A stretch of 63,972 nucleotides of DNA, the filler included, from Licmophora abbreviata (Eukaryota): the NCBI GenBank assembly GCA_900291995.1. It is 15 parts of 15 records of this genome, joined end to end, with 100 filler letters (N's around TTAATTAATTAA, not from the genome) between each part and the next. Parts side by side here need not be neighbours in the genome. Positions count along the whole stretch, not along the records: positions 53,481 to 57,202 come from OLMU01001023.1; positions 57,303 to 58,746 come from OLMU01001024.1; positions 58,847 to 60,960 come from OLMU01001025.1; 12 more parts are not named here. One strand, given 5' to 3'. Position numbers and translations under genes: made by a program. Each line of letters begins with the position of its first letter. Positions within the stretch are counted from its first letter, which is position 1. This document shows positions 41,190 through 60,960 of this stretch, piece after piece. The notes beneath the pieces were generated by a model. That model was not told the origin of the DNA, ran no database searches, and saw only the letters and a program-made list of their open reading frames with translations.

Positions 41190-42251
41190 ATGCTTGACGC
41201 AAGCACCACCGCCACCCGACCAACCCACGCACCCGCCGATCATCCGGCGATACCGAAATACAAGACCGGTATTCTGCTGGCTAATTTGGGAACACCCGAT
41301 CACTACAGCTACTGGCCGATGCGCCGGTACCTGAACGAGTTTCTGTCAGACAGGCGTGTGATTGATTACAGCCCGTGGAAATGGCAGCCTCTTCTGCAAT
41401 TGATCATCCTCACCAAACGGCCCTTCACAAGTGGCGAGGCCTACAAGTCGATCTGGAACGAGGAAAAGGGCGAAAGCCCCCTGATGACGATCACCCGCGA
41501 TCAGACCACCAAGATGGCCAAGGTTCTCGAGGATCGTTATGGGGATCAAGTGATGGTCGATTTCTGTATGCGCTATGGAAACCCGTCAACCAAGTCCAAG
41601 GTGCGCGAAATGGTCAAGGCGGGATGCACGCGCATCCTGTTCTTCCCGCTCTATCCGCATTACGCGGGCGCCACTTCGGGCACCGCGAATGATCAGTTCT
41701 TCCGGGCCTTGATGGAAGAACCCTGGCAGCCGACCGCGCGTACAGTGGAGCCGTATTACCAGAACCCGCATTATATCGAGGCGCTCGCGCAATCGGTTGA
41801 AAAAGCTTATGCGAAAATCGAGGATCGGCCTGACATCCTCGTTGTGTCGTATCACGGTATGCCCAAGCGCTACCTGATGCAGGGTGATCCGTATCACTGC
41901 CAATGTCAGAAGACGACGCGCCTTCTCAAGGAACGTCTTGACTGGGATGACTCCGAGATAACCACGACGTTCCAATCCGTATTTGGGCCCGAAGAGTGGC
42001 TGAAACCCTACACGGTCGATCATGTCGCCGAACTGGCGAAACAGGGCAAAAAGAAGATCGCTGTCGCAGCGCCCGCGTTCTCGGCGGATTGCATCGAAAC
42101 ACTCGAAGAGATCAACGAAGAGATCAAGGAAAGCTTCGAGGAGGCGGGCGGAGAGCAGTTTACCTACATTCCCTGCCTCAACGACGATGACGCACATATC
42201 AATGCGCTCGCCTCGATCGTCAGCGACAACCTGAAAGGCTGGCTGGACTAA
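41190..42251 (+). CDS. hemH: ferrochelatase
   Basis: LLANLGTP, MRYGNP, PLYPHY, SYHG, WLKP, DCIETLEE. Confidence 0.96.
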   Translation: MLDASTTATRPTHAPADHPAIPKYKTGILLANLGTPDHYSYWPMRRYLNEFLSDRRVIDYSPWKWQPLLQLIILTKRPFTSGEAYKSIWNEEKGESPLMTITRDQTTKMAKVLEDRYGDQVMVDFCMRYGNPSTKSKVREMVKAGCTRILFFPLYPHYAGATSGTANDQFFRALMEEPWQPTARTVEPYYQNPHYIEALAQSVEKAYAKIEDRPDILVVSYHGMPKRYLMQGDPYHCQCQKTTRLLKERLDWDDSEITTTFQSVFGPEEWLKPYTVDHVAELAKQGKKKIAVAAPAFSADCIETLEEINEEIKESFEEAGGEQFTYIPCLNDDDAHINALASIVSDNLKGWLD

Positions 42252-42364
42252 AGCGTTTCGCGAAAAACCTGAATGACAGATTTTCGGGAAATGCAGTGCT
42301 CCGTTCAATCGTTGCACGCGTTCCGACTTTAGCTGATGCCTCAGATTAAAGGCGGAACGCTTTA
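42249..42364. mobile_element. degenerate 116-bp TA-bounded MITE-like element
   Basis: 13-bp terminal inverted repeats TAAAGCGTTTCGC / GCGGAACGCTTTA (one mismatch); no ORF. Confidence 0.55.
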
Positions 42365-53249: not shown

Positions 53250-53602
53250 GGGACTGTTGCATTAATCGCAGGTTTCACCCAGTTTTCGAGCTTTGAAGTC
53301 GAGTATGCCGGTTATATCCCCGTTCAAGCACCATCGTTTTCCACGTGACGTCATCCTTTGCGCGGTACGGTGGTATCTGCNNNNNNNNNNNNNNNNNNNN
53401 NNNNNNNNNNNNNNNNNNNNNNNNTTAATTAATTAANNNNNNNNNNNNNNNNNNNNNNNNNNNNNNNNNNNNNNNNNNNNAAGCGATCAGAACAATCAAA
53501 CGCGGCGAGATCCAGTACATCAGCCACCTCTTCGAGCTCGCATGAACCAAGGCGCCCCCCATCGACAATCATGCACCCTGGGAAAATTAACGCAACAGTC
53601 CC
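53250..53602 (+). mobile_element. IS6 family insertion sequence; centre collapsed in gap; transposase ends at 53305-53380 and 53481-53545
   Basis: 17-bp IRs GGGACTGTTGCATTAAT / ATTAACGCAACAGTCCC resembling IS26 ends; MPVISPFKHHRFPRDVILCAVRWYL and AIRTIKRGEIQYISHLFELA*. Confidence 0.9.
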
Positions 53603-53936
53603 TTTTGGACAGGGTGAACATCAAAGACGGCCCACCCAATGTGCGCGACCGACAGCGCCCGAACCCAAACGTTTGTTCTGGAAACCTGAACGACACTTGG
53701 ATGGTTGTCCGATGGCCTGCAGAAAATGCCTGTACGTATCCCATTTGGGACATGGACGGGTGCATCAGCTTTGTCTACCGTCGAACGGTCGCTTCAAAGG
53801 GCGCGGGAGGCGTTCCACAGGGGCCGCTCCAAGGCAGGATGGGTTAAATGGTCAAGGTTTAGACATAACGCGTGTTTAGCGCGCGAAATTCATGTCCTAA
53901 CCGTATGAGAAGAGGTAACAGTTGCGTATTTTTTTG

Positions 53937-55037
53937 ATGAATCCAATTCTTGTTGCGGCGGCCTTTTCTTTGACCCTGCAAACGACCCTTTCGGCGGAAA
54001 CGATCGTCGGAATCGCCGGACCGCTAACTGGAAACGTTGCGCTGAACGGCGAACAGCAAGATCTCGGCGCACAGAGGGCGATCCTGGACCTGAACGAGGC
54101 GGGCGGCCTTCTTGGCGAAACGGTCGATTTCGTCTCCGTTGACGATGCCTGCGATACCGAACAGGCCATCGCTGCGGCCAACCGTTTGATCGCTGCAAAT
54201 GTGAGTATGGTCATCGGCCACCTGTGTTCGCGGACCTCGATTGCGGCAAGCAAGCTGTACGATGCGGCGGGTATCATCATGATCTCGCCGGCCTCCACGA
54301 ATCCCGCTGTTACGGAAGCCGGACTGGAGGGTGTGTTCCGCACCATCGGCAGGGACGATGCGCAAGCTGCTGTTGCCGCGACTTTCATTCTGGAGAACTT
54401 CGCCGACCACGCCATTGCGCTGCTGCACGACGGAAACACCTATGGCAAGGGCTTGGTCGAAGGGGTCAAGGCCGAACTGAATGCCGCAGGGAAAAAAGAA
54501 GCCCTGTTCGCCACGTTCGAAGCGGATCAGGAAAGCTATTCCGCCGTGATCGCAGAGGTGGTCGCTGCCGGGGCTGGCGTGATCTATGCGGTCAGCAACG
54601 GGGTGAACGATGCCGCCCTACTTACCCGCCAGCTCAAGGAAGTGATGCCCGACGTGGTCATGATTTCTGCCGACTCAATGGCAGGGGACGGGTTTTCTCT
54701 GATCGCGGGTGAGGCGGCCCCCGGCACTTTCTTCACCTTCGGGCCTGACGCGCGCCTCGCGTCGCGCGCGGCCGAGGTCGTCAACAGCTTCCGGGACGAA
54801 GAGTTTTATGAACCCGAAGGGTATACGCTCTACAGCTATGCGGCCGTCCAGGCCTGGGCTCAAGCCGTGGAGGCCGCAGGCACAACAGCGACACCCGACG
54901 TGATCCTGGCCCTGCGGTCGGGAACATTTGACACGGTCATCGGTGACATTGGTTTCGACGAAAAGGGTGATGTGACCGGCATCGATAACTTCGTGATGTA
55001 CGTGTGGGGCCAGTCACGGTATGCGCAGGTCGAGTAA
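53937..55037 (+). CDS. LivK/LivJ-like type I periplasmic binding protein (orphan)
   Basis: Signal peptide, GIAGPLTG, DDAC, IGHLCS, SPASTNP, FRTIGRDDAQ, FDTVIGDIGFDEKGD. Confidence 0.9.
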   Translation: MNPILVAAAFSLTLQTTLSAETIVGIAGPLTGNVALNGEQQDLGAQRAILDLNEAGGLLGETVDFVSVDDACDTEQAIAAANRLIAANVSMVIGHLCSRTSIAASKLYDAAGIIMISPASTNPAVTEAGLEGVFRTIGRDDAQAAVAATFILENFADHAIALLHDGNTYGKGLVEGVKAELNAAGKKEALFATFEADQESYSAVIAEVVAAGAGVIYAVSNGVNDAALLTRQLKEVMPDVVMISADSMAGDGFSLIAGEAAPGTFFTFGPDARLASRAAEVVNSFRDEEFYEPEGYTLYSYAAVQAWAQAVEAAGTTATPDVILALRSGTFDTVIGDIGFDEKGDVTGIDNFVMYVWGQSRYAQVE

Positions 55038-58000
55038 CGCGGCTCGCGAAGGCCGCGTTGCCTCGAAAGACCCAACTGTCCAACACGGTCTTTTTCGAAA
55101 TCTTCTGTCCAGCGTGAAAACCCGTCTGATGGTCGCATTCCTGGCCATCAGCTTCTTCGCGATCTCCGCAGCGGCCCTTGGCATGTGGTCGCTTGCACGG
55201 GTGGACAGTTCGTTGCGGGTCGTCACCGATGTGCGCATTCCTGAAACCCTGACACTGACCGATGTCGCCCGGCAAACCCAGCAGGTATTGCGCGCCGCGC
55301 CGGCCTTGTTGATTGTCAGCGACGAGGAACAGCGCAGCGCGACGTCAGCGCGTGTGCTCAAAGAAACCGACCAGTTGAGCCGGTTGATTTCACAGGTAAA
55401 CGCCGCGGAGCCGCGTGTCATCTTCGAGGCCTTCCACTCAAATCTTATGACACTCGACGCATTGGTCGAAAGACGCCTTGCCACCAGCAATCAGCGCGAA
55501 AGCGTTTATGGACGGCTTATCAAGGCCTCTGACGTGGCCGCGCGCCTCGTATCAGCTGCGGAACGTATTCTGGGTGGCCAGCTCAGTGAATGGAACACAG
55601 GCGATGCGGCGGACGCCGCAGAACTGACGGACCGGCAGGTTCAGTTGTCGCAAAGCATTATCGGAATGCTGCCGCAAATCGACCTTCTCACGAAGATCGG
55701 AGACCTGAAATCTGCGCTGCAACGGGTATCGGAGGCCACAACGGAGGAAGAAATCGATGTCCTCGCATTTGGCCTGCAGCGCGCCATTCTCGATGTGGAA
55801 GACGTCGCCAACGTGGTGCCCGACAGGGCTCGGTCCCGGCTCTTGCGGCAAGTGGACATCCTTAAAGACCTGATCGCGGGAGACTCGGGGTTGCCGGCGC
55901 TCAGAAAACAGGAACTTCGCCTGATCGCTGAAGCCGAACGCGCATTGGCAATCAATGCAAGCTTGTCCGTCGAATTGAGCGAAAGCGTCGACCGTCTGGT
56001 TGTAGCGGCCAAGGCCGAGATCGAGCAGGCCAAGTCCGAGGCGACAACGGTGACCAAGCGCAACACGGTGATCCTGCAGGGAATGGGGGCCGCAAGCGTT
56101 CTGTTCTCCGTGTTGATCGGGTGGCTCTATGTAAGCCGCGATCTGATTGCACGTCTGGTCGGATTGTCGCGCAGCATGTTGTCGATCGCGGACGGCAAGC
56201 TTGATGTTGATTTGCCGGAAGCCGACAGCAACGACGAGATCGGGCAAATGGCGGCGGCGCTCACGGTGTTTCGCGACACGGCCGCGGAAGTTCAGAGGTC
56301 GAATCTGTTCGAGATCCGAACGGCGCGGCAGCGCTTGCAGGAGGCGATCCGCAGCCTGTCCCAAGGCTTTGCGCTGTTCGATCAGGACGGTGGGCTTCTC
56401 ATCTGCAATGCCCGATACCGCGAGATCATGCTCGGCGACGTGCAGCCCCTTGAAGAGGGAATACCGTTTGCCTGGATCGCTGCGAAAGCCGCAGACTCCG
56501 GCCGGTTCCTCGCCGCCGCGGATGATCCCGACGCCTGGCGACGGGCCCTTCTGGCGTCCTTCCGGTCAGGGGCGCACACGTCAAACGAACGGTTCGACAC
56601 GGATCAATGGGCGCAAGTAACAGTTCGGAGTGCGGGCGAGGTGGGAACGGTGGTGGTCCTGTCCGACATCACCGAACTCAAGCGCATATCGGACGAACTG
56701 CTTGTGGCAAAGGACGAAGCCGAAGCGGCCAATCACGCGAAGAGCACCTTCCTGGCGTCCATGAGCCACGAAATTCGTACCCCTTTGAATGGGATCATGG
56801 GGATGTCGGCGCTGCTCAAGGGCACGCGCATGGATGCGGAACAACGCGATTTTGCCGCGACGATCAACGAAGCGGCCGAAACGCTGTTGACGATCATCAA
56901 TGACATCCTCGACTTTTCTAAAGTCGAGGCCGGCGCAATGGAGCTTGAAAAAGCGCCGGTGGATCTGGTCGATGCGGTTGAGAGCGCAGTTGAATTGCTG
57001 GCACCCAAGGCCCGGGAAAAAGGCATCGTGCTTGCCTGTCGCCTGTCGCCCGACACACCACCCGCTATCTTGAGCGACAGCGTCCGACTGAAGCAGATCC
57101 TCCTGAACCTTCTGAATAACGCCATCAAGTTCACGGACGCGGGCGAGGTCGCCGTGTCTGTCGAAAGGATCGCGCCGGAAACCGGCGCGGACTGGTTGCA
57201 GANNNNNNNNNNNNNNNNNNNNNNNNNNNNNNNNNNNNNNNNNNNNTTAATTAATTAANNNNNNNNNNNNNNNNNNNNNNNNNNNNNNNNNNNNNNNNNN
57301 NNCACGGATCGGATGGATCGATTGTTCAAGTCCTTCAGCCAGGTCGATGCTTCCACCACCCGGCGTTTTGGCGGTACTGGTCTGGGGCTGGTGATCACGC
57401 AAAGGATCACCACGTTGATGGGTGGCGAAATAGAGGTAGCAAGCACGCCGAGTGTCGGCTCCGTTTTCACCCTCAAGCTGCCATTCGAGGCGGCTGCACT
57501 GCCCCCATCGCACCGGCTCGACGACTTATTGGCATTGGTCAGGCATCGCCGCATCCTGATCGTGGACGACCATAGGACGAATCTGACAATCCTGGCCGAA
57601 CGCTTGCTGAGCTGGGATATGACACCCGAACTCGCCGACCATCCGGATACGGCGGTGGCCTTGCTGCGGGCCGGGCATTCGTTCGACGCCATCATCACCG
57701 ACTTCAAGATGCCTGGCCGGACCGGGCTGCAAATGGCAATCGATATCCGTCAGGAATTCGGCGACCGGGCCCCGCCGATGATCTTGTATAGTTCGGTTTC
57801 GCTTCTCGATCCGGCGATGCGGGCGCAGTTTGAAAGCGCAGGCTTCAATGCGCATCTGATGAAGCCAGCCAAAACGCACAGATTGCTAAACTCGCTTGTC
57901 AACGCAATCTGCCCAGATGCTGACAAGCCAGCCCTGGTCTCGGAGCCGTCTCGGTTTGATTGGTCCAAAATCCGGGCCGAGGACAACCTGAGTATCCTGC

Positions 58001-58392
58001 TCGTGGATGACAATGCGATCAACCGCAAGATCGGGGTCCAGATCCTCAAGCGCCTCGGGCTTCACGCGACCGTGGTGACCAGTGGCGCCGAGGCGTTGAC
58101 TGCCTGCGACGAAGCGTCGTTCGACGTGGTGTTCATGGATATCGAAATGCCCGACATGGACGGGGTGACCACGACCGAGAAGTTGCGCGAACAGCTGGCC
58201 GAGCGACGTCACCCCTATGTCGTGGCGCTGACCGCCAACGCCATGGTGTCGGACAGGGAGAGCTATCTGCAATCGGGGATGGATGACTATCTGAGCAAGC
58301 CGATAGACATCGAGAAACTCACCGCTTGCCTGAGCCGGGCGTGGGATCGGGTACAAAACCAGCCCGGCGATGCAAGCGTGCAAGCGGGGTAG
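55021..58392 (+). CDS. hybrid sensor kinase: TM, TorS-like helical periplasmic domain, TM, HAMP, PAS, HisKA, HATPase, REC, REC (gap inside HATPase; start uncertain)
   Basis: DEIGQMAAAL, FALFDQDGGLLICNARY, MSHEIRTPLNG, NLLNNAIKFT, FGGTGLGL, ITDFKMP, FMDIEMP. Confidence 0.92.
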
Positions 58393-58398
58393 CACAAA

Positions 58399-58887
58399 AT
58401 GGGCGACCACATCGACCTGACAGCCTTGAGGAGACTCAAGAACATGATCGGGGGCAATCCGGCCGATCTCGCGGAGCTGATCGATGACTTTGTAGCCGCC
58501 CTGCCGGGGCAGGTGCAGGCGCTGCATGACCATGCAGGCAACGGCGATCTCGGCGCGCTGCGGATCGCTGCCCACAGCTGTAAATCGAACGCCCGGGACT
58601 TGGGTGCGACGCGCCTCGCCGATCTCTGTGCCCGGCTCGAAACCGAATGCGCCGCGGGGGAGGTGACGGAGCTACCCGCGCAATTGGCGCGGATTGCCGA
58701 AGCGGGTGAGGCGGCCTTGTCCGGCTATTCGAAGCTGGATCTCTTCNNNNNNNNNNNNNNNNNNNNNNNNNNNNNNNNNNNNNNNNNNNNTTAATTAATT
58801 AANNNNNNNNNNNNNNNNNNNNNNNNNNNNNNNNNNNNNNNNNNNNCCTTGTCCGGCTATTCGAAGCTGGATCTCTTCCGTGTCTGA
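58399..58887 (+). CDS. Hpt phosphotransfer protein (32-bp contig overlap at gap)
   Basis: AAHSCKSNARDLGA; ends KLDLFRV*. Confidence 0.9.
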
Positions 58888-60406
58888 CATGAGCGCTGCG
58901 AGAATCTTGATCATCGACGACAACCTGATCAACCGCAAGAAACTGCGGCTGGCGGTGCGCAGTCTGGGATACGATGCCGAAACGGCGGAGGATGGGGCGG
59001 CGGGGCTCAATGCCCTAAAAACCGGACCCTTCGACGCGATCCTGTTGGACATCCTGATGCCCGGTATGGACGGGTTCGAGGTTCTCAAGCGCCTCAAATC
59101 CGACGCGGTGCTGCGGGATCTGCCGGTCATTGTGGTGTCTGACCTTGAGGGCGACACGAAGAGCGTCTCTGCCGCGATCGAGATGGGGGCAGAGGATTTT
59201 CTGCCCAAAAGCTTCGATCCGGTGATCCTGAACGCGCGGCTGAAGGCCTGTTTACGCAAGAAGCAGTTCCGCGATCGGGAGCTTGAGTATTTTCGCAGGA
59301 TCAACGCGTTGACGAATGCGGCGGAGCGGGTCGAGACAGGCCTGTTTGACGAAGAGAGCCTGAACCTCGCCGCGGAGGCCCGCAACAACGACCCGATCGG
59401 CCGTCTGGCCATGGTCTTTCAGGGCATGGCCAACGAAATTCATACCCGCGAGGTCAAGCTGCTGCGTCGCATCCAGACGCTTCAATGCAGCATATTGTTG
59501 CTGATCTGCGGTGGCCTTGCGGGGTTGTATCCGTCCTTGTCCAGATTGGCCGCCGGGTTCGGCGCAAACCCTATCGGGATGTCGTTCTGGGTCGGCCTGT
59601 TCGCGGCCGGCATCTGCACGGTGCTCGTCCTGTTTCGTGGCGGTCTGCCGAAACTGTCACGCAGCGACGTCCTGTTCTTTATCGTTTGGGCCTTCGTGGT
59701 CGGTATTCTGCAACAAATCTCCATCTTTGTGCTGTCTGGACATGTGCAGGCAACATATCTCACGCTGGTGCTCGCGCTTGAGGGCCTTCTGGTCTTCGCT
59801 TTTGCAGCTCTCATGCGGCTCGAAGACATCGTTCCAATGCGCATCCTTGGCTTGTTGGTAGGTCTTGTCGGTGTCGGCATCAGCCTGTCCGAGCGTATGA
59901 ACGGAAACAGCGCAGACGCGAACTTCTGGTTGCTCGCCTCGTTCGTTGCGCCCGTCTTCTTTGCCTTCGAAACGATTGCGGTGGCTGCCAAGCGCCCCGA
60001 ACACATCGATCCGGTTGGCGCAGTGGGCATCATGTTCGCATTCTCGACCATCCTGGCCTTCGCCCTTGCCTTGGGGACCGGAAACATCATCGCGCCCGAA
60101 AAGCTGCTTTCGCCCTTGGGCGCAACGCTTGCGGCGCTGGCCTTTGTCACCGTCGGGACCAATGTCACGTTCTTTATTCTTCTCAAGTTGGGCGGCGGCG
60201 TGTTCACCAGCCAGAAAGCCTACGTGACCGCCCTGGCCGGGGTGCTTTGGGGCATCGTCCTGCTGGGCGAGACCATGTCTTCCCTGGCCTGGGGTGCGAT
60301 CGCGTTGGTTCTGCTTGGAATGTACCTGGTGGGCGCCAAGACCTCGAACGAACCGATCACCATCAAGCGCAACTTCGGGGTCCAGGCCAATGACACACAG
60401 ACATGA
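58880..60406 (+). CDS. fusion of receiver domain, HAMP-like helix and 10-TM EamA/DMT transporter
   Basis: IIDD/LLDILMP/VVS/LPK receiver residues; DPIGRLAMVFQGMA; ten hydrophobic helices in two repeats (..MRLE..RILGLLVGLVGV and ..LLGE..AWGAIALVLLGMYL). Confidence 0.88.
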   Translation: MSDMSAARILIIDDNLINRKKLRLAVRSLGYDAETAEDGAAGLNALKTGPFDAILLDILMPGMDGFEVLKRLKSDAVLRDLPVIVVSDLEGDTKSVSAAIEMGAEDFLPKSFDPVILNARLKACLRKKQFRDRELEYFRRINALTNAAERVETGLFDEESLNLAAEARNNDPIGRLAMVFQGMANEIHTREVKLLRRIQTLQCSILLLICGGLAGLYPSLSRLAAGFGANPIGMSFWVGLFAAGICTVLVLFRGGLPKLSRSDVLFFIVWAFVVGILQQISIFVLSGHVQATYLTLVLALEGLLVFAFAALMRLEDIVPMRILGLLVGLVGVGISLSERMNGNSADANFWLLASFVAPVFFAFETIAVAAKRPEHIDPVGAVGIMFAFSTILAFALALGTGNIIAPEKLLSPLGATLAALAFVTVGTNVTFFILLKLGGGVFTSQKAYVTALAGVLWGIVLLGETMSSLAWGAIALVLLGMYLVGAKTSNEPITIKRNFGVQANDTQT

Positions 60407-60960
60407 CAAACCGGTCGTCCTCATCGTGGATGATACGTCCTTCAACCGCAAGAAACTGAGCGCGGTGCTGGCGGACCTTGGGCTGGAGGCGGTGCTGGCC
60501 GAGGACGGTCAGGCGGGTCTGGACCAGATGCGCAGGCGGGCGTTTGATCTGGTCCTTCTGGACATCGTCATGCCGGGCAAAGACGGCTTTGACGTGCTGT
60601 GCGAGGTGCGCGGCGATGCAAACCTGCACGAGACCCCGATCCTTGTGATCTCTGCGGTCGAGCAGACCGACGAGATCGCCCGTGCGCTCGACCTTGGCGC
60701 GATTGACTTTCTGCCCAAAACGGTTGATCCGCAAATCTTTCGGGCGCGGGTTCTGGGGGCCATCGAAAAGAAACGAATGCGCGATCTTGAGCTGTCCTAT
60801 TTTCACGATGTGGCCCGGCTGACCTCTGCCGCGCATCTGATCCGCGCAGGCCAGACCGACCCCATGGCGCTTGATCTGGACCCGGTGACGCGGCGCGGCG
60901 ATGGGCTGGGCAACCTGGCGCAGGTCTTTGCCGATCTCGCTACCGCCGTCTACAAACGCG
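60390..60960 (+). CDS. paralogous receiver plus HAMP-like protein, 3' end lost in gap
   Basis: IVDD/LLDIVMP/VIS/LPK; linker colinear with that of the upstream gene. Confidence 0.88.

Follow-up and report, generated by a model that had tools for sequence, protein, structure and literature searches.

A candidate phosphorelay whose terminal receivers are embedded in DMT/EamA transporters

Two-component systems are commonly presented as switches that act on transcription, on enzymes or on motors. Where does a phosphorelay end when none of these is encoded beside it? This question is raised by a cluster of five genes in the window analyzed here, a stretch of 63,972 bases from the Licmophora abbreviata assembly GCA_900291995.1. 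The cluster encodes a LivK-like periplasmic binding protein (gene 1), a hybrid histidine kinase (gene 2), a histidine phosphotransfer (Hpt) protein (gene 3) and two paralogous proteins in which a receiver (REC) is joined through a HAMP-like linker to an EamA carrier of the drug/metabolite transporter (DMT) type (gene 4 and, cut by the end of its contig, gene 5). We regard the cluster as a real, conserved and apparently unstudied phosphorelay variant with transporter-embedded terminal receivers, for which the mechanism considered below is plausible. From the sequences we lean, by a narrow measure, towards the reading that the relay gates transport post-translationally through the receivers built into the two carriers.

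The five open reading frames (ORFs) lie on one strand and are tightly packed, with spacings from a 17-nt overlap to 6 nt (Table 1). This arrangement had been reported in a preliminary description of the same DNA, and a Pfam scan of all five proteins agreed with its identification of the binding protein, hybrid kinase, Hpt and REC-EamA fusion. Gene 2 starts inside gene 1, the two sharing 17 nt. The kinase consists, in order, of 4HB_MCP_1, HAMP, PAS_7, HisKA, HATPase_c and two Response_reg domains. Its two transmembrane (TM) helices, TM1 at about residues 36-54 and TM2 at about 349-367, flank a periplasmic helical-bundle sensor of roughly 290 residues. The H-box SHEIRTP (residue 582; HisKA E 3.6e-22), the acceptor-Asp motifs of both kinase receivers and the HSCKS motif of the Hpt were all found where they had been described. 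The domain set of a phosphorelay is complete: a HisKA H-box, HATPase_c, kinase receivers, a separate Hpt histidine and terminal receivers in genes 4 and 5. Within the three contigs that carry the cluster, the ORF and Pfam scan detected neither an output domain of the DNA-binding, GGDEF/EAL or cyclase kind nor an ABC permease or ATPase, which bears out the earlier observation.

The N-terminus of gene 1 reads as signal-peptide-like. Its closest solved chains are the amino-acid binding protein 3ip5 (E 3.3e-74), then leucine and Leu-Ile-Val binding proteins. No ABC permease or ATPase gene stands beside gene 1 on its contig, which begins only 456 nt upstream of it, and a promoter scan found no sigma-70-like site upstream, a result that is uninformative. 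No curated NCBIfam model reached its cut-off for any of the five proteins. Gene 1 belongs to the Peripla_BP_6 fold family and scored 271.8 bits with PRK15404, under the cut-off of 477; the best match of the kinase was TorS (the equivalog model TIGR02956), with 262.5 bits against a cut-off of 676.5.

Gene 4 (58889-60406) encodes a protein of 505 aa with a receiver, a weak HAMP match and two EamA repeats. The EamA family (PF00892) was matched in two stretches with 48.3 bits, against a cut-off of 28.2. Among solved sequences the receiver is best matched by PleD (residues 3-149, E 9e-32). In an alignment of 101 family members, D10, D54, S84 and F104 are kept in all 101 proteins and D11 and K107 in 100. 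The acceptor residues, reported as intact for the window, are so throughout the family and are under strong constraint.

An AlphaFold2 model of the gene 4 product, made with the 101-member alignment, has a mean predicted local distance difference test score (pLDDT) of 92.4 and a predicted template modelling score (pTM) of 0.77. It contains a CheY-like receiver whose α5 continues as a single helix (111-150), a short connector and an unbroken helix (169-223) that spans the linker into TM1, the first of ten membrane helices. Foldseek placed the receiver on RR468/CheY at a TM-score of about 0.9 and the membrane part on LicB (7paf, 0.75 over 292 columns) and TPT, the triose-phosphate/phosphate translocator (5y78, 0.76 over 305 columns), the sequence identity of the membrane part to solved carriers being 13-15%. 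The NCBIfam and solved-chain searches gave no characterized close relative. When two copies (residues 1-495) were predicted together, the interface score ipSAE was 0.46 (median of three runs), versus 0.00 for the best of three controls; that mark was attained for 21 of 30 solved homodimers and for none of 23 solved monomers. Contact agreement was at least 85% and pLDDT at least 77 in the dimer runs. The predicted interface comprises the α4-β5-α5 face of the receiver and the linker residues 112-149 and 169-205, which pack as four parallel helices. Its contacts fall on heptad positions of both linker helices (e.g. 173-142', 177-145' and 188-188'). As in a HAMP bundle, the first helix of one chain touches the second helix of the other, and the two second helices pair. 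A symmetric dimer of the fusion protein is supported by these models.

The fusion is not confined to this window. A search with the whole gene 4 protein found 373 relatives; the best 120 listed include 118 in which PF00072 and PF00892 occur together, and the sources label them just 'response regulator' or by the two domains. Several come from isolates recorded as Roseivivax, Frigidibacter, Limimaricola, Mesorhizobium and Devosia. The membrane part alone had 825 matches among 1.84 billion cluster representatives. The best 150 of these 825 (50%-identity representatives) comprise 32 proteins with REC, linker and EamA, 113 with EamA alone and 5 fragments. With our own profiles no REC-EamA protein without the linker was found among these 150, and the REC-linker-EamA architecture is therefore, on this sampling of sequences, fixed in its three parts.

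Some relatives extend this architecture within a single chain. P0248 continues from REC-linker-EamA into PAS-HisKA-HATPase-REC-REC and P0267 into PAS-GAF-GAF, P0240 contains two full REC-linker-EamA units, and P0279 joins an EamA domain of the unfused type to a pyridoxal phosphate-dependent decarboxylase of the Orn/DAP/Arg type. Each is a single record in which gene-calling errors are possible. The first two types of chain are consistent with the fusion being physically linked to its kinase, and the double unit perhaps with such a link between the two paralogues. From P0279 there is a hint that the substrates are amino acids or amines.

Does the membrane part transport anything at all? It could be a non-transporting domain that anchors or dimerizes the receiver, so that the phosphorylated protein recruits or regulates another partner. 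Such a role would suit a membrane part that has just two weak matches among solved chains, both short and of the SemiSWEET type (E 0.019 and 0.054) and a mean identity to the window protein of 0.42-0.45, somewhat below that of the receiver (0.59) and of the linker, which is about like the receiver. It suits less well the complete ten-helix DMT fold, predicted with high confidence, and the two EamA repeats that both exceed the Pfam cut-off. Moreover, the polar or charged positions E312, R318, E361, S441, Q442, Y445 and E461, which fall within or between predicted membrane helices, are shared by 87-100% of the 101 members, and the nearest unfused relatives are ordinary EamA proteins. We consider a mere anchor quite improbable, and carry on with the reading that the membrane part is a carrier.

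Gene 5 had been described as a separate REC-HAMP-like protein. This did not hold. Its product, of which the window contains receiver and linker, has 43% identity to gene 4 across 182 residues, and its best longer relatives are REC-EamA proteins of 508-528 aa with 90, 76, 69 and 66% identity. We conclude from this homology that gene 5 is a second receiver-HAMP-EamA transporter, truncated by the contig end, and that the hidden downstream sequence encodes EamA and not a DNA-binding or cyclase output. The start of gene 5 overlaps gene 4 by 17 nt. A REC-cyclase or REC-kinase identity was also considered for gene 5 and rejected; REC-kinase, REC-cyclase and REC-PP2C proteins are found among its relatives only at 45% identity or less. 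A tree built from 101 members of the family places the gene-5-like proteins in a clade of their own (support 1.0), apart from the gene-4-like clade, and the pair is thus old and not a recent duplicate. Seven gene-4-like and gene-5-like matches have a longest contig of equal length, from which we only infer that the two types are kept together in the nearest relatives.

The surroundings of the fusion were compared in nine genome and 52 metagenome loci, using the window proteins. They contain 35 fused genes in 31 loci, and a homologue of the C-terminal half of the kinase lies within 6 kb of 24 of the 35. Three further loci (L124, L130 and L137) have the end of a kinase at the contig edge, plus an Hpt, and the remaining 8 fused genes either have 3.2 kb or less of upstream contig or are second copies. 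Some loci are duplicates from one organism and are not independent (e.g. L104/L113, L105/L117, L122/L124 and L123/L125). Wherever the flank suffices, a hybrid kinase and an Hpt stand beside the fusion. The commonest order is kinase, Hpt and fusion on one strand, while in L108 and L120 the Hpt is fused to the kinase; the core order that the preliminary description had proposed to check is therefore conserved. Among the neighborhood ORFs covered by the Pfam scans, which were those nearest the cluster (75 of 134 called in one set and 49 in another), no REC-DNA-binding regulator was found. The TorS_sensor_domain family was matched in five of the homologous kinases.

The binding protein, which had been counted as a conserved part of the system, is not constant. 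It is of the SBP_bac_3 family in L101, L103, L108, L109, L111, L123 and L133, of the DctP family in L105, L106 and L122, and of the Peripla_BP_6 family in L120 and the window; five loci have a protein of about 270 aa at this place, and the subgroup of L107 has a cytoplasmic GAF-GAF kinase. Because the family changes between loci, an amino-acid-like signal, as originally suggested, holds at most for the window locus and does not extend to the others.

How might such a relay work? The input would be a small ligand, probably an amino acid, whose presence the LivK-like periplasmic protein signals to the TorS-like domain of the kinase in the periplasm. The phosphoryl group would pass from the kinase histidine to a kinase receiver, to the Hpt and finally to Asp54 of each REC-HAMP-EamA protein. 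The fusion proteins would act as dimers in which phosphorylation alters the α4-β5-α5 face of the receiver. This change would run along α5 into the HAMP-like four-helix bundle, whose second helix is predicted to be continuous with TM1, and would toggle the carrier between transport and closure. Metabolite uptake or release could in this way be turned on or off in seconds, with no need for new gene expression. What the sequences and models show are the domains and their order, the conservation of acceptor residues and of the neighborhood, and a predicted continuous helix and dimer; every phosphotransfer step is inferred, as are ligand and substrate, the way in which the carrier transports and signalling from receiver to membrane.

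The flow of information might also be the opposite. The EamA domain could act as a co-sensor, or 'transceptor', in which the HAMP-like linker relays substrate occupancy or cycling of the carrier to the receiver. The receiver would then be a regulated phosphate sink or competitor and would tune how much passes down the relay to another, unlinked target. HAMP domains normally signal from the membrane to the cytoplasm, and in CbrA/CrbS-type kinases a fused SLC5 transporter domain serves sensing. Moreover, the EamA domain of P0248 and P0267 is directly N-terminal to the PAS/GAF-kinase part, which is the place of a sensor module, and additional receivers are present at some loci. The neighborhoods scanned, on the other hand, contain no other conserved output regulator, the window kinase already has a periplasmic sensor and a binding protein, and in the fusion's receiver the acceptor residues are complete and the aromatic F104 is conserved, as expected of a domain that drives an output. 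A co-sensor is an explanation that we take seriously and think unlikely, and relay-gated transport remains the reading that we prefer.

Several points weigh against relay-gated transport. One is the linker. The HAMP (PF00672) match of gene 4 has 20.6 bits, below the Pfam cut-off of 25, so that the HAMP-like part of the preliminary description stands as a sub-threshold match; the closest genome homologue of gene 4 reaches 24.7 bits, and PF00672 is precomputed for 3 of the 120 relatives listed. When the linker was compared by hhalign with a profile of ten Pfam-verified HAMP domains from partner kinases, both helices were aligned (46 columns, E 1.3e-5), with a probability of only 80.7%. Signalling from a HAMP domain into the membrane is an assumption, given the usual inward direction. 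The dimer score may stem from the memory of the model for solved REC and HAMP dimers. The fusion of L101, 69% identical to gene 4, pairs with a different family of binding protein. Since so close an orthologue has another binding protein, the sensed ligand and the carried substrate are probably not the same compound; for the same reason we regard the sensor input, as judged from these loci, as exchangeable and the output as constant. Further receivers occur in some loci, as stand-alone REC proteins in L108 and L120 and as a REC-PAS-cyclase in L123, and the fusion need not be the sole output. Finally, the cluster is on three short contigs and its genomic placement is uncertain. The REC-PAS_7-adenylate/guanylate cyclase gene of L123 (4319-5971) lies between the fusion gene and the binding-protein, Hpt and kinase genes. 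Going by this one metagenome locus, some versions of the relay may branch to a cyclase.

The last of these points raises the question of whether the genes belong together. The window is a chain of 15 contigs and not a single molecule, joined by linkers of the form N44-TTAATTAATTAA-N44, and the cluster is spread over the contigs at 53481-57202, 57303-58746 and 58847-60960. These genes might be functionally unlinked, through unrelated contigs placed side by side or a mis-assembled fusion, and the three contigs indeed have no counterpart in the nearest genome compared (G001), where a single match of 49 bases was found at the DNA level and, at the protein level, only generic matches to receivers and EamA proteins. 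Both joints can be explained. The first (57203-57302) splits HATPase_c at matching profile positions, with positions 2-34 before it and 52-110 after it (Pfam), and the closest genome homologue has only 12 residues between the parts aligning to the two contig ends. At the second (58747-58846) the flanking contig ends share 32 identical bases; merging them gives an Hpt of 118 aa whose stop (58885-58887) ends one base ahead of the ATG of gene 4. Because of the overlap, the split domain and the spacing in the homologue, the three contigs form one locus as far as can be told. The claim that the internal gaps are benign is correct as to the 32-base repeat and the short loss in HATPase_c; they are, however, contig joints and not sequencing gaps.

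Contiguity at the joints rests on the overlap, the split domain and the homologues, and public contigs were compared for 58847-60960. This segment is found inside a 10,242-nt contig in each of two public runs, though these are possibly the source of this DNA; 5,081 nt precede it and 3,047 nt follow it there. Near-identical pieces of it are present in two other public runs. The gene order, furthermore, recurs across many independent genomes and metagenomes. An artefact is largely refuted, and we give it next to no weight beside a genuine locus.

The neighboring contigs of the window were matched in G001 at 93-96% identity and in the same order. In G001 the interval between argG and grpE carries sulfotransferase, aminotransferase, msrA, malic enzyme and mutS genes instead. 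For this reason the cluster is considered strain-variable, and its placement between the argG and grpE contigs is uncertain. At an E-value of 1e-40 or less for the whole protein, the fusion was found in 8 of 401 sampled genomes of the order of G001 (8 of 138 genera), in 7 of 147 genomes of its genus (none above 55% identity) and in 1 of 401 sampled genomes of its class, in searches whose scoring was confined to the best 3 to 10 candidates of each genome. No relative above 42% identity in the membrane part was found in a metagenome scan. The distribution is patchy, and the module looks accessory and mobile.

Table 1. Positions of the cluster features, the contig joints and a recurrent upstream protein of related loci
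Feature	Position	Strand	Basis or remark
Gene 1, LivJ/LivK-like periplasmic binding protein	53937..55037	+	Peripla_BP_6 PF13458, E 8.6e-43
Gene 2 part 1, hybrid histidine kinase up to the start of HATPase_c	55021..57202	+	Pfam, TM peaks, H-box; cut at contig end
Contig joint, non-genomic N44-TTAATTAATTAA-N44	57203..57302	.	About 12-18 HATPase_c codons missing
Gene 2 part 2, end of HATPase_c and two receivers	57303..58392	+	Response_reg x2, E 5.4e-45; stop TAG 58390-58392
Gene 3, Hpt phosphotransfer protein	58399..58746, into contig end	+	PF01627, E 5.5e-11; His in HSCKS, residue 59
Repeat of the last 32 bases of the preceding contig, and end of gene 3	58847..58887	+	Exact 32-nt overlap; stop 58885-58887
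Gene 4 receiver, residues 1-110	58889..59218	+	Pfam Response_reg; acceptor Asp54 codon 59048-59050
Gene 4 α5 extension and HAMP-like helix-connector-helix, residues 111-199	59219..59485	+	HAMP profile, model helices
Gene 4 ten-helix DMT/EamA domain, residues 200-484, and short tail	59486..60406	+	Two EamA stretches; stop 60404-60406
Gene 5, second REC-HAMP-like-EamA paralogue, receiver and linker only	60390..60960	+	Pfam Response_reg; ATG 60390; contig end cuts it
Protein of about 270 aa in related loci	L102:5473-6378, L110:3339-4166, L111:3391-4203, L112:3413-4180, L114:3396-4169		Upstream of kinase

Several side observations were made in the related loci. The ~270-aa protein encoded immediately upstream of the kinase is 59-67% identical among the five loci and has a signal-peptide-like start. 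It had no sequence match in Pfam or PDB; a protein atlas suggests 'substrate-binding periplasmic protein' (score 0.98), which we treat as a lead only. Large ORFs with a LuxR-type (GerE) helix-turn-helix and no receiver stand beside the cluster in L101 (434-2278) and L112 (1298-3025), the latter also having an alpha/beta-hydrolase domain. Transposase or integrase genes adjoin the loci L104 (7762-8925), L101 (8447-9136), L107 (3736-4665), L122 (6718-7272) and L123 (109-777), and in L104 an insertion sequence integrase interrupts the kinase and the receiver of the fusion.

Others concern the window itself. Identical end overlaps of 38, 37 and 32 bases occur at three adjacent contig pairs, and contigs 9, 10, 14 and 15 are collinear with one G001 contig, with stretches missing between them. 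Position 60867 is G in the window and A in all four public runs compared. The last ~130 bases of the argG contig (53250-53380, just past the argG stop) diverge from G001, which fits a different downstream region in the window strain. A repeat of ~117 nt at about 42246-42364 has some 40 copies scattered over G001 at 83-94% identity; one copy lies just after mutS in G001 and is absent from that place in the window. An Rfam search gave no family for it, and it looks like a small dispersed element resembling miniature inverted-repeat transposable elements (MITE) or repetitive extragenic palindromes (REP).

Parts of the proposed relay resemble known systems. Binding-protein-dependent kinases are well described, among them TorS with its partner TorT (PMC8050422). 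Like TorT/TorS/TorR, the window has an orphan periplasmic binding protein beside a hybrid kinase with a helical-bundle sensor and His-Asp-His-Asp chemistry. However, its kinase has two receivers and a separate Hpt, whereas TorS has one receiver and a fused Hpt, its binding protein is LivK-like and not TorT-like, and the cluster contains no OmpR-type regulator in the manner of TorR, the terminal receivers sitting in transporters.

In PleD, WspR and similar response regulators, as would be the case here, α5 is extended as a helix that couples the receiver to a dimeric output, and REC-linker proteins with HisKA, cyclase and PP2C outputs are among the matches of gene 5. The window output, unlike these soluble enzymes, is an integral membrane carrier, with a HAMP-like unit between. 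With the DMT/EamA carriers (EamA/YdeD, YddG and RhtA, and the solved LicB and TPT) it shares two EamA repeats, ten helices and the fold of LicB (7paf) and TPT (5y78). To our knowledge no characterized DMT/EamA member carries a receiver. The linker shares with the HAMP domains of chemoreceptors and kinases a D-x-x-G...F/M motif, a predicted parallel four-helix bundle in a dimer and a predicted continuity with a TM helix. The order is reversed in the fusion, with the cytoplasmic input first and the membrane domain after it, so that it would work from the inside outward. CbrA/CrbS-type kinases, too, have a secondary-transporter domain covalently joined to two-component machinery, and in P0248 the fusion is joined to the kinase itself. 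There, the SLC5 domain is on the kinase and is used for sensing, whereas the domain considered here belongs to another transporter superfamily and is attached to the relay's terminal receiver.

Carriers of the DMT superfamily are well described, and so are receivers that act on dimeric enzymes by way of α5. A receiver fused to EamA or another carrier was not described in our full-text literature searches, although older subscription papers might mention the architecture; the view that no system of this architecture has been characterized stands to this extent. PMC12487129 mentions the terms of the fusion separately and not as a fusion.

A more far-reaching proposal can be made. REC-HAMP-DMT proteins may be the first response regulators with a carrier as effector, working as dimeric 'phospho-valves' in which HAMP signals in reverse, from a cytoplasmic receiver into TM1, so that metabolite flux opens or closes, interchangeable sensors, be they binding-protein-dependent or cytoplasmic GAF kinases, supply the input and the paralogues might form a heterodimer, as hinted by the double unit of P0240. 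We put this forward tentatively, with rather more doubt than belief. If it is true, bacteria would have control, on the scale of seconds, over what is released or taken up.

The relay itself, if it ends in carriers as we propose, would add direct and fast control of membrane transport to the outputs of two-component systems, and the linker would be a natural case of inside-outward HAMP signalling. The family is compact, of fixed architecture and present in culturable bacteria (recorded as Roseivivax, Limimaricola, Frigidibacter, Mesorhizobium and Devosia), which makes it accessible to ordinary genetics and biochemistry. A transporter whose activity is set by a swappable sensor would, if the mechanism is true, be attractive for engineered export or uptake.

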